Of a stretch of 64,000 nucleotides of DNA, positions 1,221-30,341 are shown piece after piece (within the stretch, counting starts at the first letter, position 1; each line of letters opens with the position of its first letter). Position numbers and translations under genes: made by a program. The stretch is from Candidatus Parcubacteria bacterium (GTDB taxonomy: Bacteria; Patescibacteriota; Minisyncoccia; UBA6257; HR35). The notes under the pieces are model-generated. The model searched no databases. It saw only the letters and a list, made by a program, of their open reading frames with translations, and was not told the origin of the DNA. The DNA is taken from positions 395,547 through 459,546 of the forward strand of contig AP024681.1 in NCBI GenBank assembly GCA_025999335.1. Reading direction: 5' to 3'.

Positions 1221-2159
1221 TTAAAATTTTTTTAAAAAATATGATAATAAACGAAAATTTTCAGGATCTATAAAGCACTTTTTAACACCCATTTTCCATA
1301 CAGACCAATGATTTAAACCAATACGTGATTTTGCTAATTCAATAGCTATATTCATATTAATTTCGGGGTCTTTTAAAGCTGCTGCGCATTTAGAGTATAG
1401 TTCTTGATTTTTGACTCGACAGGTATAGACATTACGGGGATCATCGCGTTCAAAAATATCACCAGGATTACATAGGGTATTATCCTTGGTTCTAAAACTA
1501 TGTACTGCCATATTGACTTGAAAAAGACCAATAGAAAAAGAATTACCATCTTTGCATTTATCTACTTTAGATTCCATATTGCTTTCACCGCCGCTTTCAT
1601 AAAGACAAATAAGAGCTAATCCATCAGCTACCTTAAAATTATAGTTGCCTATTGCTTCTTTAATTTTAATTCCGATTTTATCCGAATCGCAGGCAGAAGA
1701 ACCAATAGGTATGTCGCATTTATATCTTGTATTATAAGGGTTAAACGAATATTTATTAATTATATCTTCAGGTATTTCTACACCCTCGTCGCCGCCGCCA
1801 GCTCCTGGAAATGTTCCGGGAACATTGGGATCAAACGGAGGTAAGTCTACTGTAACTTTAGGAATGAATAATTTTACATTTGTGAAAATATCAGCGTTGA
1901 CAAAATACATAATAGCGGGCATAATAAGAGCAATAATTAAAGCAATAAGGGATTTTTTCATTTTATCTTTACCTTCTTGGGCATTGTAAATATTTGCTGC
2001 AGAAAGAATATATTGAAAAGCGCCGAAAACAAAAAACAAAAAAGATAAAGCTATTAAAATTGCAACTAACAAATTATAGATAGCTTGAAAACAGGTAGCA
2101 ATATCTGAGCATTGAGTTAATAATAATTCTGATGGTTGTGGTAGGTTAATGATTGGCAT
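1221..2159 (-). CDS. membrane-anchored lytic transglycosylase (SLT/lysozyme-like) with a VirB2/TrbC-pilin-like two-helix N-terminus
   Basis: Two hydrophobic helices separated by a charged loop in the first ~100 aa. C-terminal part carries SLT-like motifs ...ICLYESGGE... and ...SIGLFQVN... Confidence 0.5.
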   Translation of the reverse strand: MPIINLPQPSELLLTQCSDIATCFQAIYNLLVAILIALSFLFFVFGAFQYILSAANIYNAQEGKDKMKKSLIALIIALIMPAIMYFVNADIFTNVKLFIPKVTVDLPPFDPNVPGTFPGAGGGDEGVEIPEDIINKYSFNPYNTRYKCDIPIGSSACDSDKIGIKIKEAIGNYNFKVADGLALICLYESGGESNMESKVDKCKDGNSFSIGLFQVNMAVHSFRTKDNTLCNPGDIFERDDPRNVYTCRVKNQELYSKCAAALKDPEINMNIAIELAKSRIGLNHWSVWKMGVKKCFIDPENFRLLSYFLKKF

Positions 2160-3177: not shown

Positions 3178-4173
3178 TTACAACTTTTTTCTTTTTAATT
3201 TCTCCCAAAAATATATCAACCAATACCTTCCAGAAAATCTGTAATCAATTGTTGGAAAAAGTTTAATTAATTCACCGCCAAACCCCTTTTTAAATTGAGT
3301 TAAACCATACCAAGGATGACGAGAAGTTTCTTTTCGAGCTATTCCCCAAAAATTGTAAAATTTACAACCCCGTTTTTTTGCCTCTTGAATAATTTCCCAT
3401 TGAAGTTTATAATTTAGTGGTTCTTTAATTGGATAAGATGCTGAATGATGATAAAAAGCAAGCTTATGCGAAAAAATAATTAAAGCTACAGAATAATATT
3501 TATTTTCAACTTTACCTAAAAAAAACAGAGCTTTGTTTTCTTTGGCAAAAATTTCAAATTCTTTTTTAATAAATTCTTTTTGATAGGGAACAAAGTTTTT
3601 GCGTTTAGCTAAGTCTTCATAAATTGACCAAAAAGTTTCAAATTTTTCTAAATTATCGGTTTTTTCAATTTCTAAAAAAGGTTTTTTTAAGGAATCTAAA
3701 ACTGCTTTTCGATGGCGATCATTCATTTCTTTAAGCATTTCTTCGTCATTTTTAATTTCTTTTATCCAGAAATTTTCGGAGACAGCATAGGTTGGCGCTA
3801 AAATAAAACCAATTTTTTTAAAATCAATTTTTAAATTTTCAGGTTCCGCGAGATTGATTCTTAAAAAGTCATATTTTTTAAAATAATTATTTTCTTTTAA
3901 AAATTCTAAAATTTTACTTAATCCGTTTTCGAAATGCTCTTTTTTAATTACTGGTCCATGATGACAAACCAAACCTTTGCCTCTTTTTCCTTGATAACCA
4001 ATTAATTGACAAACGCCAATTAAATCATTTTCAAAAATTCCCAATCTTAAAATTTCTCTCCCTAAATTTTTTTCAACTTCGCCATACTCAAAATCTTGCA
4101 AAAAACTTAAATAATTATTATCATCTAAAAATTTATTCCATTGATTTTGATTTTCTAAAATTTTTATTTCCAT
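3178..4173 (-). CDS. FemAB/FemX-family aminoacyl-tRNA-dependent peptidyltransferase (peptidoglycan interpeptide-bridge formation family)
   Basis: 331 aa, two-lobed GNAT-like layout typical of FemAB, including the C-terminal ...KFYNFWGI...RHPWYGLTQFKKGFGG... motif region. Confidence 0.65.
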   Translation of the reverse strand: MEIKILENQNQWNKFLDDNNYLSFLQDFEYGEVEKNLGREILRLGIFENDLIGVCQLIGYQGKRGKGLVCHHGPVIKKEHFENGLSKILEFLKENNYFKKYDFLRINLAEPENLKIDFKKIGFILAPTYAVSENFWIKEIKNDEEMLKEMNDRHRKAVLDSLKKPFLEIEKTDNLEKFETFWSIYEDLAKRKNFVPYQKEFIKKEFEIFAKENKALFFLGKVENKYYSVALIIFSHKLAFYHHSASYPIKEPLNYKLQWEIIQEAKKRGCKFYNFWGIARKETSRHPWYGLTQFKKGFGGELIKLFPTIDYRFSGRYWLIYFWEKLKRKKL

Positions 4174-4462
4174 AGGATTTGAGGTTATTTTTTATTATTT
4201 TGAATTACTTTTGCCTAAATAAAAGTAAAAATGATTTTGTCAAGGTTTATGATTAACTTTTTGCTTATTATTGAAGCAAAAATAATTAACCGCAAACTTT
4301 TCGGCTGAATTTTTATAGAAATTATTATATCATTTAAAAATTTTGAATCCTAAAAAATTAAATGATTAAAAAACTCCTTTCATTTTTTATTTAAATTGAA
4401 TGCAATAAGTTTTGTAATTATAATTGTAATTATAATTAGTTGCATTATTTTAATTGATCCTC

Positions 4463-4491
4463 TTGACAAATTATAATTTTTATGCTATATT
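4463..4491 (+). promoter_or_regulatory. sigma70-like promoter driving a short GC-rich transcript
   Basis: TTGACA at 4463-4468, 17-nt spacer, TATATT at 4486-4491 (a second TATAAT at 4492-4497). Predicted transcription start near the GG at 4498-4499. Confidence 0.35.
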
Positions 4492-4497
4492 TATAAT

Positions 4498-4571
4498 GGC
4501 ACCCTCCCGTCCACCCCCATCCGCACCGCACCGCGGGGGATCTTGTTTTTCTACAAGATCCCCCATTTTTT
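4498..4571 (+). ncRNA. candidate small RNA of about 75 nt, with a C-rich unstructured 5' part and an intrinsic terminator
   Basis: Isolated GC-rich island ggcaccctcccgtccacccccatccgcaccgcaccgc in an AT-rich intergenic gap. Sits directly between a promoter and a perfect 11-bp terminator stem. No ORF. Not a tRNA fold. Confidence 0.3.
4535..4571 (+). terminator. rho-independent terminator, plus-strand orientation
   Basis: GGGGGATCTTG (4535-4545), loop tttttcta, CAAGATCCCCC (4554-4564), then ATTTTTT. The minus-strand side has no U-tract. Confidence 0.6.
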
Positions 4572-4640
4572 ATTTACGTTTATTTATAATCTCTGGATAA
4601 AAATAAATATACTTTAGTTAATTTTTGCTAGATATTTATA

Positions 4641-5921
4641 TTAGATATAGTTATATTTTTGTAATAAGTTTATTATTGTTTGGGCTTGTTGTTCGTTAAT
4701 ATTTGGATGTGTTGGTAAATTAAGAAGTTTGCGGCTAACATTTTCAGCCTTTGGACAAGTTCCTAATTTATAAGCAAAATTTTCTATATTAGAACAAGGC
4801 GCTAAAACGCATCTATACCAATCGCCAAGATAGATATTTTGTTTTTTAAATTTTTCTAAAACTTTATCAGGATTTTGAGAGAAAATAGGAAATCTTAAGA
4901 AAATAGGTTCGGAATCATTATTGATAGTAAAATTTTTTAAACCTGCGGCTATATAAATTTGAGCAATTTTTTTTCGTTGCTCATTAAATCTTTCTAATTT
5001 GTTTAATTGGTTTACTAATAAAGGAAATAGAATTTTAGGGAATTTAGCAAGATAGTTCTTTGGTTGTTTGCCTTGTTTTTCAAGAGAGGAAACCATTTCT
5101 AAAGTAAAATTTTTAGTTCTTAAAAATTTTAAGTAGATTTTCATTAGGAAGTTGTAATTTTCTTTTGCTTTATAAAGTATTTTGCCGGTGAATAAAGTTT
5201 TTTTAATTTCTTTAGAATCTAAATCCGGCAGTTCTTGGTATTTTTGTCGAATTTTTTCATTGAAGTTTTTATTTCTAACAATTAAAGCACCACCAGTGAT
5301 AGCAGAGATAACTTTATTGCGGTTAAAGCTTAATAGTACAAAATCGCCAAAATTTCCTAAATAGACGCCTTTATATTTTGCACCTAAAGAATGAGTTAAA
5401 TTTTCAATGATTAAAAGATTGTTTTTTTTAGCAATATTTAGAATTTCTTCAATTTTAGCTGGGATACCGAAAGTATTTTGAATAATTATCGCTTTTGTTG
5501 TTTCATTAATTTTGTTTTTTAAATCATCGATATTTAAATTAAAACTTTCATCAATGTCAATATAAAGAGGCTGGAAACCAGCAAATTTTATAGCATTAGG
5601 GACAACTAAACAGGAAAAAGCTTGGGTTAATATATGCGGATCGCGGCGAATATTACTTGCGTTTATTTGCGTTTTTAAAACGTTCGTGTTTATTCGCGTA
5701 TCTATATTTTCCAATAAAAAACTTAAAGCACTTCTAGCTGAATTAAAAAAATAAATTTCTGTATTAGGAAAATAAGTAAATAAAAATTTTTTTGCTTTTT
5801 CTTCTAAGTTTTCAAAATCAAAAGAATAATTTTTTAATAATTTATCTATAATTTCAAAATCATCATATTCAAAATTTGGAACTAAATCAATGTTAATTGG
5901 TTTTTTCATTTGTTTAATCAT
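4641..5921 (-). CDS. DegT/DnrJ/EryC1/StrS-family PLP-dependent aminotransferase (amino-sugar aminotransferase type)
   Basis: 426 aa. ...NSARSALSFLL..., ...AIIIQNTFGIPA... and the PLP-lysine region ...GDFVLLSFNRNKVISAITGGALI... match the DegT family pattern SFH..K. Confidence 0.65.
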   Translation of the reverse strand: MIKQMKKPINIDLVPNFEYDDFEIIDKLLKNYSFDFENLEEKAKKFLFTYFPNTEIYFFNSARSALSFLLENIDTRINTNVLKTQINASNIRRDPHILTQAFSCLVVPNAIKFAGFQPLYIDIDESFNLNIDDLKNKINETTKAIIIQNTFGIPAKIEEILNIAKKNNLLIIENLTHSLGAKYKGVYLGNFGDFVLLSFNRNKVISAITGGALIVRNKNFNEKIRQKYQELPDLDSKEIKKTLFTGKILYKAKENYNFLMKIYLKFLRTKNFTLEMVSSLEKQGKQPKNYLAKFPKILFPLLVNQLNKLERFNEQRKKIAQIYIAAGLKNFTINNDSEPIFLRFPIFSQNPDKVLEKFKKQNIYLGDWYRCVLAPCSNIENFAYKLGTCPKAENVSRKLLNLPTHPNINEQQAQTIINLLQKYNYI

Positions 5922-6034
5922 TTAAACCTTTGCAGACTATACGCAAACTGTCGCCAACTATTTCGGGAGCTTTTATGAACTTTCTTATTAATCGTGAAGT
6001 ATTATATGCCGGTATTTTTTTACTATAGTTCATA

Positions 6035-7570
6035 TTAATTCATAATAAATTTTATTTTTTCCGGAAATCTATTAAAAATCCAAATCCCGATTTTTTTATT
6101 TTTTAAACTTTGTAAGAACAATTCTAATTCTTCTGCGTTTTTAATTAGCCATACTTTTTCTTTTAAAATTTCTTTAAAAATTTCAATATAATCATTAGAA
6201 GTTAAAATGATTTTATCAAAACTTAAAAATTGTAATGCTAATTCTTTATAAATTATTTCTGCTTCTGCGCCTAGTTCAAAAAGACCATTAAAAACAATTA
6301 TTTTATAATCAAACTCTAAATTTTTAAAAAATTTAATACTATCAAAAACTCCTTTAGGATTGGCATTGTAAGAATCGTCAAAAATATTTATGTTTTCTTT
6401 AATCTTTAGTTTTAAGAATCCTTCAGGTAGTTCTAAAGTTTTAATTTTTTCATAATATTCTTTTAAATTATCAATTAAAGATAGATAAGTTAAAATTCCG
6501 CAAAGATTTTCAATTTGCATAGGGAAAATAATTTTTGTGGTAAAAATTTCATCTTTAAATTTAAAAACTGTTTTTTCTAAGTTTTGTTCCAAAATTGTAT
6601 AAGGTTCGTAAAGATATAATTTAATTTGCGGTGCTTTTACTTTTTCAATAGCGTTTTTTAGTTTTTCAAAATATTCATGATTTTGATTAACGATTAAAAT
6701 TCCTTCCTTCATCCAGGTTAAAATTTCAACGCCTTCGCCTTGAATAATGTTTTCTATGCTTCCGAACAGAAATAAATGTTGCTTGGTAATACCGGTGATA
6801 AAAGCAATATGAGGAGTGATGTATTGAGTTATCCATTTAACATTACCTAAATAATAAGAACCAAATTCAATTATTAAATAATCATAATTTTCTAAATCAG
6901 TTTTTAAGACAAATTTTAAAAGCGCATATTCGTGATTAATTCTTGGAGGCGTCGAGATGACTTTGTATTTTTCCTGTAATAGTTGTTCTAAAAATTCTTT
7001 AGTTGATGATTTGCCATAACTACCAACAATTCCGATAATTTTTAAATTCTTGTTTTTTGTTAATTTTTGCTTAACTTTTTTGCCTAAATAATTTAAATAT
7101 GGCTTAACAAGTAAATCAAATATACTAATAGCGATTGTAAAAACTATAAATTGACTTACCCACAAAGATAATAAAGTTGTTATTATTTTATTATTATTAA
7201 CTATATATAAGAGAAAGGTATTGATAATAAAGCTAAAAATAGTGATAATGATTACTTTAGGCGTAAAAAAAATTTTTTTTATTAAAGAGCGTCTCAAAAT
7301 AAATATGAAAATAATTAAGAGGAGAGCGATAAAATTTAAGAATTGAGATAAGAAATTTATTTTTTGCAAAGAAAAAAAATCAAACCATATTGATCCAACT
7401 ACTAAAAGATATAGCAAATATTCTTTTTTATTAAAAATGAGTTTCCGTGAGCTTGGAAGATAAAAATGAGCTACGGCTCTTTTGAAAAGATAATTTTTGA
7501 TTTGATAAAATCTTAAAACCGCCGTGCCATTAATTAAAAATATAATAAGAGAAAGAAAAAAACTAATCAT
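6035..7570 (-). CDS. MurF-like Mur-ligase-family enzyme fused to an N-terminal polytopic membrane domain of about 170 aa
   Basis: Four to five hydrophobic helices, then P-loop IIGIVGSYGKSSTKEF (compare MurF ITGSVGKTSTKEM). Then ...NHEYAL...IIEFGSYYLGNVKWITQYITPHIAFITGITKQHLFLFGSIENIIQGEGVEI..., which parallels the MurF central domain. Confidence 0.6.
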   Translation of the reverse strand: MISFFLSLIIFLINGTAVLRFYQIKNYLFKRAVAHFYLPSSRKLIFNKKEYLLYLLVVGSIWFDFFSLQKINFLSQFLNFIALLLIIFIFILRRSLIKKIFFTPKVIIITIFSFIINTFLLYIVNNNKIITTLLSLWVSQFIVFTIAISIFDLLVKPYLNYLGKKVKQKLTKNKNLKIIGIVGSYGKSSTKEFLEQLLQEKYKVISTPPRINHEYALLKFVLKTDLENYDYLIIEFGSYYLGNVKWITQYITPHIAFITGITKQHLFLFGSIENIIQGEGVEILTWMKEGILIVNQNHEYFEKLKNAIEKVKAPQIKLYLYEPYTILEQNLEKTVFKFKDEIFTTKIIFPMQIENLCGILTYLSLIDNLKEYYEKIKTLELPEGFLKLKIKENINIFDDSYNANPKGVFDSIKFFKNLEFDYKIIVFNGLFELGAEAEIIYKELALQFLSFDKIILTSNDYIEIFKEILKEKVWLIKNAEELELFLQSLKNKKIGIWIFNRFPEKIKFIMN

Positions 7571-7783
7571 TACTTTTGTAAAAACTTAACAAAGATAGAA
7601 TTTTATGACAATAAAATCGCAATAAATGACATAGTAATTATATCATCGTTTAGAAAAGACTTTAATACTCTGCGAAGCAAAAATATTTTTACTTTAAAAA
7701 CAAACAAGATAAGCAAAAATTTTTACATTGAAGAGGTAATTACCTATTTTCGCGAACAAACTTTAAAAAAAATTTTATCGGAA

Positions 7784-8488
7784 TCAGATATTTAAAGCTT
7801 CTTTTAATATTTTAGCGAATTTTTCAGGATCTTTTTTGTGGTAACTATGACCTCCTTCAAAAACGATTAGCTGAGAATTTTTAATTAATTGTTGTAACAA
7901 TTTGCCTTCTTTTAAAGGAGTTATTTTGTCATAGACGCCCCAAAGCATTATTGTTGGTACGCTAACTTCTTTAGCTTTTTCGCTTAAATCTTGATATATA
8001 TTTTTCATAGTTTTTTTCAAATTATCATCAACATTAAAATAATCATAACTTCTGACAATAAAACGATAGATAATTTTTTTTATAAATAAAGCTATTTTTT
8101 GAGGAAAAATTTTTTCAACTTTTTTAACAATGCGAGCCAATGTTCTTAAAATTTTTACTTTAATTTTTTTTGAAGTTGATCTAACAATTGCTGGATTGTA
8201 GAGAATTAATTTTTTTACTTTTTGTGGGTGTTTAATAGCAAAAAGCATAGCCAAAGCTCCACCAAAGGAATGTCCTAAAAGATAAAAATTGTCAAGCTGT
8301 TTAGTGTTTTCTTCTATAAATTGAATAAAATCTTCAAAGGTATAAGGGCGAGGTAATGGTGTTTTAAATCCAGGTAAATCTAAAGCTCTGATAACATTAA
8401 AGTCTTGATTAATTAGCTCAATAACTGATTGATAAGAATTGCTACTATCTCGCCAGCCATGGATGATGACTAAATTTTCTTTTGGCAT
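7784..8488 (-). CDS. alpha/beta-fold hydrolase (esterase/lipase type)
   Basis: 234 aa. ...LVIIHGWRDS... oxyanion region and nucleophile elbow LLGHSFGGALA. Confidence 0.7.
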   Translation of the reverse strand: MPKENLVIIHGWRDSSNSYQSVIELINQDFNVIRALDLPGFKTPLPRPYTFEDFIQFIEENTKQLDNFYLLGHSFGGALAMLFAIKHPQKVKKLILYNPAIVRSTSKKIKVKILRTLARIVKKVEKIFPQKIALFIKKIIYRFIVRSYDYFNVDDNLKKTMKNIYQDLSEKAKEVSVPTIMLWGVYDKITPLKEGKLLQQLIKNSQLIVFEGGHSYHKKDPEKFAKILKEALNI

Positions 8489-10905: not shown

Positions 10906-12831
10906 ATGGAATACGGTAAAAAAGTTTTTGTCGGCATTATACTTTCATCTTTGTTTATATTTTTGGTCGTTCCTTCATTTGCCGTTAAAGCACAGACTTC
11001 AGTTTCTTGCGACCCTGATGCTTTAAAACCTGCTAGCAAAGGTCAACGCGGTGCTAATGTTAAAAATTTGCAAGCTTGCTTAATTGAAGCTGGTTATGAC
11101 ATTCCCGCAGGTCCTACAGGATACTACGGTCCACAAACAGTAAGTGCAGTTTTGGAGTTCTACAAAGACAATGATATGCAAGACGGTATTAACCTTAAGG
11201 GTAATAGAATTGGTCCTAAGGGCATTGCTGCTTTAAAGGACGCTTTATCACAGGTTAGCGAAGAACCTAGCGAAGAACCTGGTGAAGAGCCTTCTACAAC
11301 AACTCCATCAACTGGAAGTCAACAACAACAACCATCAGTTGATCAAATTGTAGCTGCTGTAATTGCTGCTTTAAGAGCTCAAGGCTTATTACAACAACAG
11401 CCTACATCTACTGGTGTTACAGGGACAACTGGCGAAGAAGGTATTTTAACAGTGGACACCAATCCAACGCCAGCGTCTGGTCAGCAATTTAGAGAAGGAG
11501 AAACTCTTACTTGGTTAGGTGTAAGATTTAGAGCTCAAGATTCTGACATTAGAGTTAAAAGCTTTAAAGTTACTTGGCCATCTACAAACAATGTTGCTCC
11601 TCAAAGAGTTGTTGTAAAATTTGAAATCGTTGATGAACAAGGCAATGTTCTTAAAACAATTCCAGCTTCAGACTTTACTCAGGAAATATCCGGAAATCTT
11701 GACAGCTACTATTATGTAACTGGTTTAGATTATGTTGTGCCTAAAAATACTTACAAAGCTTTATACATAAAAGCATATGCTGTTTCTACATTCCCAAGTG
11801 GCTTACCAACTTCCTTTAATCTTCAGGTAAGCGAAGTAAGAGGTAGAGATAATGCTGGAATCGATAGATTCCCAGCAGGAACAGCTTCCAGAACTGTTAC
11901 ACCTCAATCAACCGTTGCTACTTCGGCACGATTTGATGTTTCTAAATCAGTTTCTTCTCCAGTAGAAAACAATGTTGTTGGTGATTATGTAACTGGAAGA
12001 GCAAACAATGTAAGACTTTTAGATGTTGAACTTTTAGCTAGAAATGATAGAGTTAGATTAATGCAATTAGTAGTTAATATTTCTGGTAGCGCTACTGCTT
12101 CTGTTGTATACCTTAAAGATGACGCTGGTAATACTATTGATTCAGCAGCGCCATCAGGAGGTACTGCAACCTTTACCAATGTTTTGGGTCAAAATATTTG
12201 GGTTGAAAGAGATCAAACTAAAAAACTTTCAATTTATGCTGACTTTACTGGCGTAACTACATCAGAAGTAACATCAACAGTTTCTGTTGCTTCTTTACAA
12301 AGACAAAACAGCTTAGGTGATACTGGTTCTCAGTCAGTTTCTGGAGTTAGCGGAGATCTAATGCATATCTTCACCGAAGCTCCAGTCTTTGCTAAAGGTT
12401 CAACTTTCGATGTAAGTATTACTAGAGATCAAAATAATTCAACCACAACCGCAAATGCTACTTTATATGTTAATGTTACAGCCAGAGGTTCAAATATTAA
12501 AATAAGTTCAACATCAGTCTTCACTCTTGCTTGGGAAAGAAATAATACTACAACAGTTGTAACTACTTCTGTTGCCGCAACTGAAGTTAAAGATCAAAGC
12601 GGTAATACTGTTGCTCAAGATACTAATGGTTATTACAATATTCCAGTTAATCAAACCTATACTTTTGTTCTCCAGAATCAACAAATCTTTACTGGAGCTC
12701 CAAGAGTTAGGGTAAAGGTTAATGGTATAACCTGGAGAAACTCTGCTAACAGTGATATTACTTCAGGTTCCTCAAGCTCAGCAACTGAGACTTGGGTTGG
12801 AAGAGATCTTAAGACTAATTGGAGCAACTAA
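10906..12831 (+). CDS. secreted protein with an N-terminal peptidoglycan-binding (PG_binding_1-like) domain and a long Ser/Thr-rich beta-rich region
   Basis: Signal peptide VFVGIILSSLFIFLVVPSFAVKA. Then ...GQRGANVKNLQACLIEAGYDIPAGPTGYYGPQTVSAVLEFYKDN... fits the PG_binding_1 consensus. Remainder is low-complexity T/S/V-rich. Confidence 0.5.
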   Translation: MEYGKKVFVGIILSSLFIFLVVPSFAVKAQTSVSCDPDALKPASKGQRGANVKNLQACLIEAGYDIPAGPTGYYGPQTVSAVLEFYKDNDMQDGINLKGNRIGPKGIAALKDALSQVSEEPSEEPGEEPSTTTPSTGSQQQQPSVDQIVAAVIAALRAQGLLQQQPTSTGVTGTTGEEGILTVDTNPTPASGQQFREGETLTWLGVRFRAQDSDIRVKSFKVTWPSTNNVAPQRVVVKFEIVDEQGNVLKTIPASDFTQEISGNLDSYYYVTGLDYVVPKNTYKALYIKAYAVSTFPSGLPTSFNLQVSEVRGRDNAGIDRFPAGTASRTVTPQSTVATSARFDVSKSVSSPVENNVVGDYVTGRANNVRLLDVELLARNDRVRLMQLVVNISGSATASVVYLKDDAGNTIDSAAPSGGTATFTNVLGQNIWVERDQTKKLSIYADFTGVTTSEVTSTVSVASLQRQNSLGDTGSQSVSGVSGDLMHIFTEAPVFAKGSTFDVSITRDQNNSTTTANATLYVNVTARGSNIKISSTSVFTLAWERNNTTTVVTTSVAATEVKDQSGNTVAQDTNGYYNIPVNQTYTFVLQNQQIFTGAPRVRVKVNGITWRNSANSDITSGSSSSATETWVGRDLKTNWSN

Positions 12832-12957: not shown

Positions 12958-14052
12958 TTGATGAGGATAGTTAAGATTTTAAGTTTAGTTTTTTTATTTA
13001 CAATATTATTTTTTAATGCTTTTGCTCAAAGATTGATTAAAAATAAATTCATCGATACTATTATTGTCAGCAAAAATGATCCAGTAATTAGTTCGGAAAC
13101 AGTCACTTTTTCTTTTCAAGGGATTGATAAATCTAATAAATCTAAATCTTTTCGTTTTCAAACTGTTTTATTGCCGATAGAAAAAAAATGGCAAAATTAT
13201 GATTTAAGTACAAAAACTTATTCTTTGCCCAAAGGTTTAGCAACTTATATCTTTAAAGTTAGAGCTATTAACGATAAAAATAGATATGATCCAACGCCGG
13301 CTTTTTTTGTATTTACAAATTATATTTCTAATTTTTATAAAGATATTAGGATTAATATTTCTAATGATGGTTTTAGTCTTGTTTTAGAAAATAAAAGTAC
13401 TAGTAGTATTAATATTACGGGTTGGCATCTGGTTAGCTCTAATATTAATCTTTACATTCCTAAAATGGTTAAAAATTTACTTCCTGACTATTATAATATT
13501 ACCCCAGAGGATGTTGTTTTAGAGCCAGGCGGAAAATTAATCATCAAGGCTGTTTATAATAATGCTGCTTCTTTACCTTTAAATATAAATCAAAATGATA
13601 TTAAATTAGCTCCTTTAAATTTTAATTTTTTAGTTAATAAATGTTTGGGTTATTTACATCCCGATTATGCTAATTTATATTGCGATAAATTTACCGCTAC
13701 TAAAGATGAATTATTGACTTTAGTGCAAACAGGTAGAATAAGCCGTCAGTGCGCATTAATTTTAGAAAATCCTGATTGTCGTGGTAGAGAAACTATTAAA
13801 AAAGTTTTAGAAATTAATGATTATTATTGTAAAACATTAGTTTTTGATTGGTATAATTACCGTTCTTGTTATGCTCGCAATCAAGATAAGACAGATTTTT
13901 ATTTAAAAGATTGGCATATGTTTATTGATCCGCGTTCGTCTCAAGAAATTTCTGCAAGGAAACCGCTTAAAAGATTATTTCAGGATCGTTACGAAGCAAT
14001 TTTACTTTATGATAGCAATAATTTATTAGTAGATAAATATTCAATTTACTAA
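12958..14052 (+). CDS. hypothetical secreted protein with a Cys-rich C-terminal half
   Basis: 364-aa ORF. N-terminal hydrophobic signal ILSLVFLFTILFFNAFA. Several Cys pairs in the C-terminal third. No family recognised. Confidence 0.35.
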   Translation: MMRIVKILSLVFLFTILFFNAFAQRLIKNKFIDTIIVSKNDPVISSETVTFSFQGIDKSNKSKSFRFQTVLLPIEKKWQNYDLSTKTYSLPKGLATYIFKVRAINDKNRYDPTPAFFVFTNYISNFYKDIRINISNDGFSLVLENKSTSSINITGWHLVSSNINLYIPKMVKNLLPDYYNITPEDVVLEPGGKLIIKAVYNNAASLPLNINQNDIKLAPLNFNFLVNKCLGYLHPDYANLYCDKFTATKDELLTLVQTGRISRQCALILENPDCRGRETIKKVLEINDYYCKTLVFDWYNYRSCYARNQDKTDFYLKDWHMFIDPRSSQEISARKPLKRLFQDRYEAILLYDSNNLLVDKYSIY

Positions 14053-27286: not shown

Positions 27287-29089
27287 ATGTCCGACTTAGA
27301 TAATTTACGACATTCTCTGGCGCATATTTTGGCAGCAGCCGTTTTAAAGATAGATCCTCAAGCGAAACTTGGCATTGGTCCAACAACTAAAGATGGGTTT
27401 TATTATGATTTTCTTTTAAGTAAAAAAATTAGCGAAGAATCTTTAGAAGAGATTGAGAAGATAATGAAAGATATTATTGCTCATAATTTAGATTTTATTC
27501 AAAATAAAGTGAGTTTTGAAAAAGCAAAGCAAATTTTTAAAGAGCAGAAATTTAAATTAGAACTTTTAAGTGATTTAAAAAAATACGGAACTACTGAATA
27601 TAAAGAAATCCAACTTATTAAAGCAAAAAAGAAAAAAGCTAAAAAGATAAATAAGGTTACAATTTATCGAACCGGAGATTTTATTGATCTTTGCCGCGGT
27701 GGTCATCTAAAAAATACTAAAGAAATAAATCCTAATGCTTTTAAACTTATAAAAATTGCTGGTGCTTATTGGCGTGGCGACGAAAAAAAACCAATGCTTC
27801 TGCGAATTTATGGAGTTGCTTTTACGACGGAAAAAGAATTAAATGATTATCTGCAAAAATTAGAAGAAGTTGAAAAATATAATCATCGTGTTTTGGGAGA
27901 AAAATTAAAAATTTTTATGATTAATGAAAATATCGGTAAAGGTTTGCCCTTGCTTTTACCTAAAGGAGAAACGATTAAAAATATTTTAATAAATTATATG
28001 AGAATAAAAGAAGAAAAGTATGGATATGTTTATGTTGATACTCCGCACATTGCTTCTTATAAACTTTACGAAAAAAGTGGACATCTCAAATATTATCAGA
28101 ACGATATGTTTAAAGTTTTAGATCCGGAAAAAGAAGAATTTTATTTAAAGCCTATGAATTGTCCTCATCATCATATGATTTATCAAGAATTGGTTAAAAG
28201 TTACCGTGATTTACCTTTAAGACTCGCCGAGGCAGGGTCTGTTTATCGTTATGAAAAATCAGGCGAAGTTTATGGTTTGATGCGAGTTCGTGGTCCAATT
28301 ACGCAAAACGACGCTCATATTTATACTAACGAAGAAGATTTCGAAAATGAATTTTTAAAAATTATTGATTTATTTTTAGAAGTTTATAAAGATATCGGCG
28401 CGATAACAAATTATTGGTTTCGTCTTTCTTTGCCTGATTTTTCCGGCAAGAATAAGGGAAAATACGGTGGCGATTTAAAACTTTGGCGATGGGCGAGTAA
28501 AAAAATTCTCGATGTTTGTAAAAAAAGAAAAATTAATTTAGTCGAAGGTTTGGGTGAAGCAGCCTTTTATGGTCCGAAATTTGATATTCAAATTAATAAT
28601 ATTTATGGCAAAGAAGAAACTTTAGCAACAATCCAGGTTGATATTTTAGTTCCCAAAAGAATGGGACTTACTTATATTGATAAGAACGGCAAAGAAAAAA
28701 GTCCTATTATTATCCATCGAGCTATTTTAGGATCTTACGAAAGATTTATTGGCTTTTTACTTGAAGCAACTCGAGGCGATTTGCCTCTGTGGCTAGCGCC
28801 TATTCAGTTCGTTGTTTTACCTGTTAGCGATAAAAGTATTGATTATAGTTTAAAAGTTTTTAATCTTTTAAGAGAAAAATTTAGAGGCGTTCTTTGGAAT
28901 GAAGATACATTAAATAAACGCATTTTAAAAGCTGAAGACGAGAAAATTCCGGTAATGGTGATAATAGGAGAGAAAGAAGCGAAAAATAATTCTGTTTCTT
29001 TGCGCTTTAGAAAAGAAGGCAATTATGGCGAAAAGGATATTAATTTTCTTTTAACGCTCTTCAATGAAAAAGGCGTTATCCCTCTTTAA
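27287..29089 (+). CDS. thrS: threonyl-tRNA synthetase, no N-terminal TGS domain
   Basis: 600 aa. Begins at the N2/editing domain (HSLAHILAAAV...CRGGHL), then class II motifs (…FYLKPMNCPHHHMIY…, …GLMRVRGPITQNDAHIY…) and the anticodon-binding domain. Confidence 0.9.
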   Translation: MSDLDNLRHSLAHILAAAVLKIDPQAKLGIGPTTKDGFYYDFLLSKKISEESLEEIEKIMKDIIAHNLDFIQNKVSFEKAKQIFKEQKFKLELLSDLKKYGTTEYKEIQLIKAKKKKAKKINKVTIYRTGDFIDLCRGGHLKNTKEINPNAFKLIKIAGAYWRGDEKKPMLLRIYGVAFTTEKELNDYLQKLEEVEKYNHRVLGEKLKIFMINENIGKGLPLLLPKGETIKNILINYMRIKEEKYGYVYVDTPHIASYKLYEKSGHLKYYQNDMFKVLDPEKEEFYLKPMNCPHHHMIYQELVKSYRDLPLRLAEAGSVYRYEKSGEVYGLMRVRGPITQNDAHIYTNEEDFENEFLKIIDLFLEVYKDIGAITNYWFRLSLPDFSGKNKGKYGGDLKLWRWASKKILDVCKKRKINLVEGLGEAAFYGPKFDIQINNIYGKEETLATIQVDILVPKRMGLTYIDKNGKEKSPIIIHRAILGSYERFIGFLLEATRGDLPLWLAPIQFVVLPVSDKSIDYSLKVFNLLREKFRGVLWNEDTLNKRILKAEDEKIPVMVIIGEKEAKNNSVSLRFRKEGNYGEKDINFLLTLFNEKGVIPL

Positions 29090-30341
29090 GTTTTTTTTGA
29101 TTGTTTTAGATTCTTTGTTATTTTTCTTTTCACTATTTATAGTTTTATTTTTTCGTGTTAAATCCATTGATCGTTTAATAATTAGTATTAACGAACATTT
29201 TATAGCTTTTTTATTTTTATTACCTATTTATTTAATACTGATTTTTGCTTTTAGCTTGTATAATTTTTATCTTTTAAATATCAAAAAAATTTTTATTAGA
29301 ACTGCCTATGTTTTATTGGTTGGCTTGCTTGCCTCGTCATTGTATTTTTATTTCACTCAGTTATTTTTTGGCATATCGCCAAGAACTAATTTAATTCTTT
29401 TCGCAATAGTATTTTTTTGGTTATTATTTTTTAGTCGTTTTTTAGTTATTAAATTTTCTTATCGTGGCAAATTGCCTTTATATTTTTTAGGCTCAGAAAC
29501 ATTAAGAAACAAATTAAAAAATGATTTAAAAGATAATCATTTTTTTGAGTTTAAAGATTTGCAGGATATAGAAAAAATTCCTCCAGGGAGTATTTTGGTT
29601 ATTGATTCTAATTATCGTGTTAATGATGATATTTTATTGCAAAAAATACTATCTAAAAATTTAAGCGTTTTTGACTACATTGATTTTTATGAAAAATTTT
29701 TTGAAAGAATTCCGTTAGAAGCTATTAATGTTGACTGGATTGTTAAAGAGATTTTTGCCGGTGAAAATAAGGCATATTTTTATCTTAAAAGAATTTTCGA
29801 TATCGTTTTAGCTATTTTTTGTTTAGTGTTTATTTTTTTGCCTTTATTGCCTTTTATAGCTATCGCTATTTATATTAATTCTCCGGGTCCTATTTTTTTT
29901 ATTAACAGTCGCGTTGGTTATCGGGGTAAAGTTTTCAATCTTATAAAATTTAGAACAATGACAGGCGTGCAGCGTCAGGAAAGTTGGGCGGTAGGGAAAG
30001 AAGAAAAAAGGATTTTTTTTGTTGGTAAAATTTTGCGTAAAACTCATTTAGACGAATTGCCACAATTAATAAATATTCTAAAAGGTGATATTTCTTTTGT
30101 TGGTCCTAGGCCAGAGCAACCACAGATAGTTGCTGATATGATTAAACTCATACCTTTTTATGATTTAAGACATTTAACTATGCCTGGTTTAACTGGTTGG
30201 GCTCAAGTTAATTATAAATATCCTGAAAATGTTGAAGAAACAAAAATAAAGCTAGAAAACGATTTATATTATTTAAAAAATAATAACCTTTTTTTAGATA
30301 TTATTGTCATCATTAAGACCTTGCAAAATTTTATTTTTTAA
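29064..30341 (+). CDS. polyprenyl-phosphate sugar phosphotransferase (bacterial sugar transferase, WbaP/EPS type)
   Basis: 425 aa. N-terminal transmembrane helices. C-terminal ...PGPIFFINSRVGYRGKVFNLIKFRTM...DELPQLINILKGDISFVGPRPE... Confidence 0.75.
   Translation: MKKALSLFKFFLIVLDSLLFFFSLFIVLFFRVKSIDRLIISINEHFIAFLFLLPIYLILIFAFSLYNFYLLNIKKIFIRTAYVLLVGLLASSLYFYFTQLFFGISPRTNLILFAIVFFWLLFFSRFLVIKFSYRGKLPLYFLGSETLRNKLKNDLKDNHFFEFKDLQDIEKIPPGSILVIDSNYRVNDDILLQKILSKNLSVFDYIDFYEKFFERIPLEAINVDWIVKEIFAGENKAYFYLKRIFDIVLAIFCLVFIFLPLLPFIAIAIYINSPGPIFFINSRVGYRGKVFNLIKFRTMTGVQRQESWAVGKEEKRIFFVGKILRKTHLDELPQLINILKGDISFVGPRPEQPQIVADMIKLIPFYDLRHLTMPGLTGWAQVNYKYPENVEETKIKLENDLYYLKNNNLFLDIIVIIKTLQNFIF

Follow-up and report, generated by a model that had tools for sequence, protein, structure and literature searches.

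We analysed a 64,000-nucleotide (nt) window of contig AP024681.1 (positions 395,547 to 459,546) from a Candidatus Parcubacteria bacterium, centring on four minus-strand genes for an alpha/beta hydrolase, a ligase with an N-terminal membrane domain, a DegT-like enzyme and a FemAB-type transferase (Table 1). This module is probably a peptidoglycan-precursor operon built around the lineage's own membrane-integral MurF, which would add D-Ala-D-Ala. For the ligase, whose protein is identical to KatS3mg097_398 from a Candidatus Parcubacteria metagenome-assembled genome (MAG), MurF appears to be the best-supported role, given its top profile, sequence and fold matches and its invariant motifs; genomic context is the decisive evidence. 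An earlier note, made from the sequence alone, had named the four open reading frames (ORFs): all are present at exactly its coordinates, and Pfam and NCBIfam domain matches bear out their identities.

A MurF-type ligase body joined to a membrane domain

Canonical MurF (UDP-MurNAc-tripeptide:D-Ala-D-Ala ligase, EC 6.3.2.10), an essential and intensively studied antibiotic target, is described in textbooks as soluble and cytoplasmic, with a uridine diphosphate (UDP)-binding domain that holds the substrate. The ligase from the window matched Mur_ligase_M (PF08245) with 81 bits and Mur_ligase_C (PF02875) with 26.8 bits, slightly below the cutoff of 28.4. Its best NCBIfam hidden Markov model (HMM) was murF (TIGR01143; 147 bits, E = 8e-43), with query residues 169–493 aligned to profile positions 67–398 of 418. 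Because this alignment starts only at profile position 67, the canonical N-terminal domain must be missing, and approximately 170 hydrophobic residues stand in its place; HMM and PDB alignments to the ligase likewise began at profile or chain positions 61–99. The best PDB sequence matches were all MurF, and the whole structural model superposed best on MurF (3zl8, 4qf5, 4cvm and 1gg4; E values of 1e-22 to 1e-18), with MurE, MurC, MurT, pseudomurein ligases, cyanophycin synthetase and FolC ranked behind.

The P-loop GSYGKSSTKE occupies residues 183–192, and residues G183, G186, K187, K191, N212, E235 and H265, the DxYNAN motif at 398–404 and E432-L433-G434 are invariant or nearly so. The motifs at 398–405 and 432–434 align to DDSYNAN and ELGAE of Escherichia coli MurF, and the corresponding motifs of Thermotoga maritima MurF also align. 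Compared with canonical MurF (E. coli 1GG4, T. maritima 3ZL8 and A. baumannii 4QF5), the central ATP-binding and C-terminal domains, the P-loop, the Mg-binding Glu and His, and the DxYNANP and ELG motifs are common to both forms. The transmembrane (TM) form, by contrast, lacks the UDP-binding domain 1 of about 80 amino acids and carries instead a polytopic membrane domain of 125–210 amino acids with motifs of its own.

The membrane fusion claimed for this protein in the earlier note proved to be real. Hydropathy analysis placed approximately five hydrophobic helices in residues 1–172, and AlphaFold2, run with the family alignment, modelled the whole ligase with a predicted local distance difference test score (pLDDT) of 91 and a predicted template modelling score of 0.87. 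In this model, residues 1–172 are purely helical, and the last helix (137–172) continues straight into the ligase body; modelled alone, the membrane domain was again all-helical, with a pLDDT of 90. No Pfam family and no PDB fold matched it. Approximately 66 homologues align over 96–100% of the ligase at 35–74% identity. In almost all of these, four to six hydrophobic segments precede a GSYGK[ST] P-loop located around residue 180, whereas the canonical MurF proteins found in the same search have their P-loop at residues 95–125 and no N-terminal TM segment. In a search of 1.84 billion cluster representatives with a profile built from 26 family members, the best 150 matches almost all covered the full profile, with lengths of 474–636 amino acids (most of them 505–577) and scores of at least 388 bits. 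A mis-called or fused ORF was ruled out by this N-terminal conservation, which extends from the first residues in the approximately 66 homologues, and by the full-length profile matches; the confident fold of the N-terminal region likewise speaks against it. The earlier note had also called a membrane-embedded MurF homologue unusual. That word calls for some reservation, as the family is very large and many of its members are already labelled MurF by annotation pipelines.

Read from the sequence, the placement of Lys and Arg agrees with an N-out, C-in topology: the loop at residues 20–50 carries eight positive charges, the loop at 93–105 five and the stretch after the fifth TM helix eight, whereas the two loops on the opposite side carry one each. 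By the positive-inside pattern, the ligase body would thus lie in the cytoplasm. Conservation in the membrane domain, assessed over 75 sequences from several phyla, is concentrated in two motifs, Q23-x3-Y27-x3-R31 and T103-x-K105, with Q23 at 100%, Y27 at 96%, T103 at 98% and a basic residue at position 105 in 100%. These four are the few positions of the domain that are invariant or nearly so, and all map to the predicted cytoplasmic face.

We also noted a shorter N-domain of approximately 125–140 amino acids with one to three predicted TM helices, found in MurF proteins encoded upstream of Ddl at five loci (L049, L057, L064, L096 and L097), of which four are labelled Patescibacteria and one (L064) Gammaproteobacteria. 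This form retains both motifs of the long form, as LQLENYxxxRF and WTxK. That the short domain keeps exactly these two motifs suggests that the membrane domain is more than an anchor and points to the motifs as its putative functional core.

Gene neighbourhood across phyla

A scan of GTDB species genomes returned 80 further loci, and neighbours were surveyed by comparing each ORF of 89 non-redundant loci by BLAST with a small set of reference proteins, with ORF starts called mechanically. The loci come from many patescibacterial classes, Clostridia, Bacteroidales, Balneolaceae, Chloroflexota and a few MAGs labelled Gammaproteobacteria; the labels of several MAGs, such as this last one, may be binning errors. 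Of the 80 loci with upstream sequence, 74 have the hydrolase gene directly before the ligase, most commonly with a 4-nt overlap. Downstream, where 85 loci were informative, the ligase is followed by DegT in 38, by FemAB in 37 and by both in 33. Another 38 of the 85 have Ddl after the ligase, and only one locus, with a weak match, combines Ddl with DegT/FemAB. The four operon Ddl proteins that we scored all passed curated D-Ala-D-Ala ligase cutoffs. A Van-type ligase in this slot was considered and rejected, the same four proteins scoring far below Van cutoffs and above those for ordinary Ddl. Two patescibacterial Ddl proteins picked from a separate search, blind to context, were both encoded directly after a hydrolase–MurF pair.

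Close relatives of the window locus (59–63% identity) retain a divergent RecG gene followed by hydrolase, ligase and DegT, after which comes either FemAB or a convergent block of murA, mraY and an S11 D,D-carboxypeptidase. Distant members (28–45% identity) have a tight hydrolase–ligase–DegT–FemAB operon, with gaps of 0–10 nt or overlaps, in otherwise unrelated surroundings. The four genes are therefore conserved neighbours in peptidoglycan synthesis, kept together across phyla, as the earlier note had supposed for a cell-envelope cluster.

The most informative locus is a division and cell wall (dcw) cluster from Paceibacterota (L061), which reads mraZ, mraW, ftsI, murE, murC, a 178-amino-acid ORF, murA, hydrolase, TM-murF, degT, femAB, dgkA, mraY, murD, ftsW, murG, a 265-amino-acid ORF and ftsA. 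MurC, MurD and MurE are present once each and score above their curated cutoffs. The membrane ligase is the only MurF-type gene of the cluster and occupies the canonical murF position between murE and mraY. Loci L026, L034 and L066 show a similar dcw embedding, and a Chloroflexota chromosome has the order hydrolase, TM-MurF, MraY, Ddl. A place between murE and mraY or beside ddl is thus another feature shared with canonical murF.

Some of these clusters contain a shortened MurE. Beside the module, MurE has only 395–437 amino acids and no N-terminal UDP-binding domain (L011 2623–3936, minus strand; L061 4371–5669; L026 103–1344; L034 499–1686). In L011 and L061, the P-loop falls at residues 23–49 and the Pfam central domain begins at residue 48, and the short proteins match MurE models only from profile position ~70–90 onwards. 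The same clusters encode MurC and MurD at full length.

A neighbour-joining tree of 338 trimmed columns of the ligase body, rooted with MurC and MurE and rough in that it carries no support values, recovered the TM-type proteins as monophyletic (84/84) and as sister to canonical MurF (40/40). This tree rejects the view of the window protein as an ordinary MurF whose extension is spurious. Where the earlier note had left open a position inside canonical MurF, the ligase is not nested there and belongs to a sister clade. Within the TM clade, DegT/FemAB-type and Ddl-type members form two contiguous groups, which shows that the two operon types have diverged. Since the ligase fails both on domain 1 and on the TIGR01143 cutoff, we file it as a new architectural variant in a sister clade of MurF and not as a plain member.

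The earlier note had suggested a different role, ligation of a peptide or amino acid onto a lipid-linked acceptor or a CapB-like polymer, perhaps as a modification of peptidoglycan or of an S-layer glycan. Taken further, this reading would make the ligase an extra paralogue of MurF or CapB type that puts a peptide or amino acid on a lipid-linked glycan, capsule or S-layer sugar supplied by DegT, in an accessory, non-essential pathway. A DegT-family enzyme does usually mark amino-sugar synthesis, a Bac_transf phosphoglycosyl transferase is encoded elsewhere in the window (29064–30341), and the ligase scores below the MurF model cutoff. Against this, the module fills the murF slot of dcw clusters that have no other murF, so that the gene is the sole MurF-type ligase in a complete cluster beside murC, murD and murE, and the sister subfamily is coupled to a genuine D-Ala-D-Ala ligase. 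No conserved companion of the module at the examined loci is a sugar dehydratase, oxidoreductase, glycosyltransferase or flippase. Kinship of the ligase with CapB, FolC or cyanophycin synthetase was rejected, as no such model or structure scored above MurF: Pfam and NCBIfam scans gave no CapB or PgsB match, the FolC model reached 24.9 bits, the MurD, MurE and pseudomurein-ligase models were also far below MurF, and cyanophycin synthetase and folylpolyglutamate synthase were only distant fold matches. The poly-gamma-glutamate synthetase PgsB/CapB with PgsC/CapC does offer a parallel, in that a Mur-ligase-superfamily amide ligase is combined, at the membrane, with a small polytopic part. Unlike that system, however, the module matches no CapB, PgsB or CapC model, the C-domain motifs of the ligase are MurF-specific, and its neighbours are mur/dcw genes, ddl, hydrolase, DegT and FemAB in place of pgsC and pgsA/capA. 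The capsule, S-layer-glycan or CapB-like role is the least supported of the explanations and is largely refuted by genomic context; we consider it very improbable.

Partner enzymes, reaction and substrate

The hydrolase matched Abhydrolase_1 (PF00561) with 81 bits (cutoff 25.8), as well as Hydrolase_4 and Abhydrolase_6; among solved structures, it comes closest to a monoacylglycerol lipase, carboxylesterases and BioH. Across 79 orthologues, the HGW motif, the triad S74/D187/H214 and the nucleophile elbow H73-S74-x-G76 are 98–100% conserved, so that the enzyme looks active from its residues. The DegT-like protein matched DegT_DnrJ_EryC1 (PF01041; 146 bits, cutoff 19.8, E = 2e-42) and reached no NCBIfam equivalog, the best scoring 107–111 bits against cutoffs above 420. 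Its best PDB matches, 1o61 and QdtB (3frk), cover the pyridoxal phosphate (PLP) domain only; K203 is aligned with the Lys of 1o61 that binds PLP (NGNK motif) and, like E173 and S198, is conserved in 100% of 39 operon orthologues. This protein, too, has the appearance of an active enzyme. It shares with NDP-sugar aminotransferases of the DegT/PglE/QdtB type a PLP-binding large domain with the catalytic Lys. It differs from them in a divergent C-terminal half, in approaching no equivalog model and in its location inside a mur operon, in a slot otherwise taken by Ddl, with no conserved keto-sugar-forming gene nearby at the examined loci.

The FemAB protein (PF02388; 64.4 bits, cutoff 24) gave 29 bits against the Weissella-type FemX model NF047883 (UDP-MurNAc-pentapeptide-Lys N6-alanyltransferase; cutoff 500) and weak structure matches to 6snr and 1lrz. 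Its F294-K295-x-G-F-G-G motif is 100% conserved in 36 orthologues, and it looks active on this basis. Pfam FemAB membership, a FemX-like length of ~335 amino acids and the FK-x-GFGG catalytic motif are shared with Weissella viridescens FemX and Staphylococcus aureus FemX/FemA. Unlike those equivalogs, with cutoffs of 260–500, it scores only 29–49 bits, and its gene follows a DegT-like gene in the operon.

From these features we propose a working sequence of steps. Because the MurF catalytic and C-domain motifs are retained, the cytoplasmic ligase body would use ATP to convert the C-terminal carboxylate of the N-acetylmuramic acid (MurNAc)-tripeptide stem into an acyl-phosphate and would then ligate the incoming dipeptide. 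The five-helix membrane domain, standing in for UDP-binding domain 1 and presenting polar and basic motifs to the cytoplasm, may hold the enzyme at the inner membrane face beside MraY, the consumer of its product, and may take over binding of the substrate headgroup from the lost domain. Family membership and gene order suggest that the FemX-type enzyme would next put a branch amino acid from aminoacyl-tRNA on the finished precursor. The esterase-like hydrolase would be an obligate and probably stoichiometric partner of the membrane MurF, and the DegT-like PLP enzyme might carry out an amine-forming step specific to the subfamily without an adjacent Ddl.

Several observations weigh against assigning a plain MurF function. 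The score of 147 bits is well below the TIGR01143 cutoff of 288.6, a cutoff that Ddl-type members of the TM clade also miss (239–270 bits), and Pfam found no UDP-binding N-domain (PF01225) in the ligase. At the position of the carbamylated Lys of MurD, MurE and MurF, all Ddl-type members have Lys, whereas the window clade has Glu (E279), which could mean a changed substrate. MurC carries Glu at this position as well, so the exchange is compatible with activity. The window's DegT/FemAB subfamily forms its own group in the tree and is not adjacent to ddl, and neither the universal hydrolase partner nor the DegT-like enzyme has a place in the textbook pathway. Moreover, the status of sole MurF was seen at the level of gene clusters, so that a second, canonical murF could lie elsewhere in a genome. 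In Bacteroidales, where a MurF-Alr fusion is the usual housekeeping form, and in some Clostridia, the module may coexist with another MurF as a paralogue.

The loss of domain 1 raises the question of the acceptor. The dipeptide could be added not to a UDP-linked stem but to undecaprenyl-diphosphate-MurNAc-tripeptide (lipid I/II) at the cytoplasmic membrane face, either with MraY acting before MurF or as a repair of truncated lipid-linked stems, and with the esterase acting on a membrane substrate. We regard this as unlikely. A lipid acceptor would fit the swap of domain 1 for a membrane domain in which all invariant residues are polar or basic and lie at the predicted cytoplasmic interface, but these motifs might serve instead to bind UDP or diphosphate, or as a docking site for MraY or the hydrolase. 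The partner hydrolase does resemble lipases and monoacylglycerol lipases; the order murE-...-murF-...-mraY, however, is canonical. MurT, a Mur-type ligase that acts on lipid II and is among the fold matches, also has no N-domain, and neither do the neighbouring patescibacterial MurE proteins. Yet the latter have no membrane anchor, and loss of domain 1 alone would therefore not imply a lipid substrate.

MurT/GatD, the lipid II isoglutamine synthase, offers a parallel: both systems have a Mur-type ligase without an N-terminal nucleotide-binding domain and a dedicated partner of hydrolase fold, and the present pair would, like MurT/GatD, act on a peptidoglycan precursor at the membrane. MurT, however, is soluble with a DUF1727 C-domain, whereas the ligase described here is predicted to be membrane-integral with a MurF-like Mur_ligase_C domain; and GatD is an ammonia-supplying glutaminase, whereas the partner here is a Ser-Asp-His esterase-type hydrolase. 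An obligate alpha/beta-hydrolase partner and a separate monophyletic clade also set the TM form apart from canonical MurF, as does, in the window clade, the Glu that replaces the carbamylated Lys.

The alternation downstream of the ligase permits another explanation, namely that DegT and FemAB replace Ddl in the window's subfamily and make the unit added by the ligase through a PLP-dependent step and an aminoacyl-tRNA-dependent peptide bond. The end of the stem would in that case arise with no ATP-grasp Ddl involved and could differ from plain D-Ala-D-Ala. Ddl and DegT plus FemAB do share one operon slot almost exclusively of each other (38 versus 38 and 37 loci), and apart from the single weak overlap no Ddl lies within 10 kb in the DegT/FemAB loci, including the full dcw cluster of L061. 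The separate groups of the two operon types in the ligase tree and the occurrence of both patescibacterial Ddl proteins that we looked up in this very slot point the same way, but the tree grouping may reflect taxonomy only, and ddl could be encoded elsewhere in the genome. The chemistry is a further difficulty: the aminoacyl groups that FemAB enzymes transfer are of the L form, whereas a D-Ala-D-Ala terminus is required by D,D-transpeptidases; relatives encode FtsI-type and S11 penicillin-binding proteins, and known substrates of the DegT family are keto-sugars or cyclitols and not amino acids. Ordinary branch addition, moreover, fully explains a FemX after MurF. We therefore hold replacement of Ddl to be quite unlikely.

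Both departures might also be combined in the window's subfamily, with the stem completed at the membrane without Ddl: DegT and the tRNA-dependent FemAB would make or modify the terminal unit, the MurF without a UDP domain would ligate it onto a lipid-linked precursor, and the esterase would edit or release. If true, this would amount to a rewired late cytoplasmic stage of wall synthesis in much of Patescibacteria, but we think it rather improbable.

A literature search, with most subscription-journal papers outside its reach, turned up no paper that describes a membrane-embedded MurF, the hydrolase that accompanies it or the alternation between Ddl and DegT plus FemAB. The clade with a conserved membrane domain in place of domain 1 is large and spans ultrasmall Patescibacteria as well as MAGs of Clostridia, Bacteroidales and Chloroflexota. 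Should its members be working MurF enzymes, a considerable share of bacterial diversity would carry out the last 'cytoplasmic' step of precursor synthesis in physical connection with the membrane, and neither inhibitors nor structural models that rely on domain 1 could be carried over to these enzymes. The choice between UDP-linked and lipid-linked substrates would be directly testable, and the alternation of Ddl with DegT and FemAB in one slot would be a lead to new wall chemistry in organisms whose walls are little studied.

Module layout and other features of the window

Table 1 Genes of the module and domains of the ligase, with positions in the 64,000-nt window
Feature	Position	Strand	Remarks
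Alpha/beta hydrolase	7784..8488	-	234 amino acids, cytoplasmic, esterase/lipase-like; first gene of the module
Ligase (whole gene)	6035..7570	-	511 amino acids; membrane domain and MurF-type body
Ligase membrane domain (residues 1–172)	7055..7570	-	Five predicted TM helices
Ligase body, central and C-terminal domains	6035..7054	-	P-loop GSYGKSSTKE encoded at 6995–7024
DegT/DnrJ-family PLP enzyme	4641..5921	-	426 amino acids; PLP lysine K203 encoded at 5313–5315
FemAB/FemX-type aminoacyl-tRNA-dependent transferase	3178..4173	-	331 amino acids, short FemX-like form

The GC content is 24–30% throughout the four-gene region, and the 64-kb window contains no other mur gene, no ddl and no mraY. Its module genes are loosely spaced, with a gap of 213 nt between hydrolase and ligase and of 467 nt between DegT and FemAB, unlike those of distant relatives, in which the same four genes abut or overlap. 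Toxin–antitoxin cassettes (HicAB, PIN and ParE) lie between the module genes of close relatives (L004 9539–10004, L008 11640–12166 and L007 3863–4341) and leave the order of the module genes unchanged. The 213-nt spacer of the window may be the scar of such an insertion. The 113-nt spacer from the ligase stop to the DegT start is filled by an ORF of 38 amino acids (6033–5917, minus strand; MNYSKKIPAYNTSRLIRKFIKAPEIVGDSLRIVCKGLND); in relatives, the two genes usually overlap at this point or are only a few nt apart.

A plus-strand unit at 4463–4575 sits inside the DegT–FemAB gap. It opens with a near-consensus promoter at 4463–4491 (TTGACA, 17 nt, TATATT, with an upstream TG), continues with a very C-rich stretch of approximately 40 nt (GGCACCCTCCCGTCCACCCCCATCCGCACCGCACCGC) within a region of 25% GC, and has a perfect 12-bp hairpin with a T-run terminator at 4535–4564. 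By these signals, the unit looks like a small RNA of approximately 75 nt on the strand opposite to the operon, possibly of anti-Shine–Dalgarno type; alternatively, it could encode an ORF of 34 amino acids. It has no Rfam match, and the Rfam scan of the window returned three tRNAs and nothing else.

Other wall-related or surface-related genes lie further out. Beyond FemAB, 1221–2159 (minus strand) encodes a 312-amino-acid protein with an N-terminal segment resembling a type IV secretion system (T4SS) pilin (PF18895) and, at the C-terminus, a region that resembles lysozyme (SLT_3). In the relative L006, too, FemAB is followed by a T4SS_pilin gene, and the gene may thus be a conserved neighbour of the module. 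On the other side, the product of 10906–12831 (plus strand) is large and secreted and combines a PG_binding_1 domain with a Ser/Thr-rich body; its gene stands beside recG in all close relatives. It is followed at 12958–14052 (plus strand) by a gene for a 364-amino-acid protein with a weak lamin-tail-domain match; both products are probably wall-associated surface proteins. The only other clearly glycan-related ORF among the window ORFs scanned against Pfam is the Bac_transf-family gene mentioned above (plus strand), which encodes a phosphoglycosyl transferase of 425 amino acids and whose start overlaps the end of a threonyl-tRNA synthetase gene by 26 nt.

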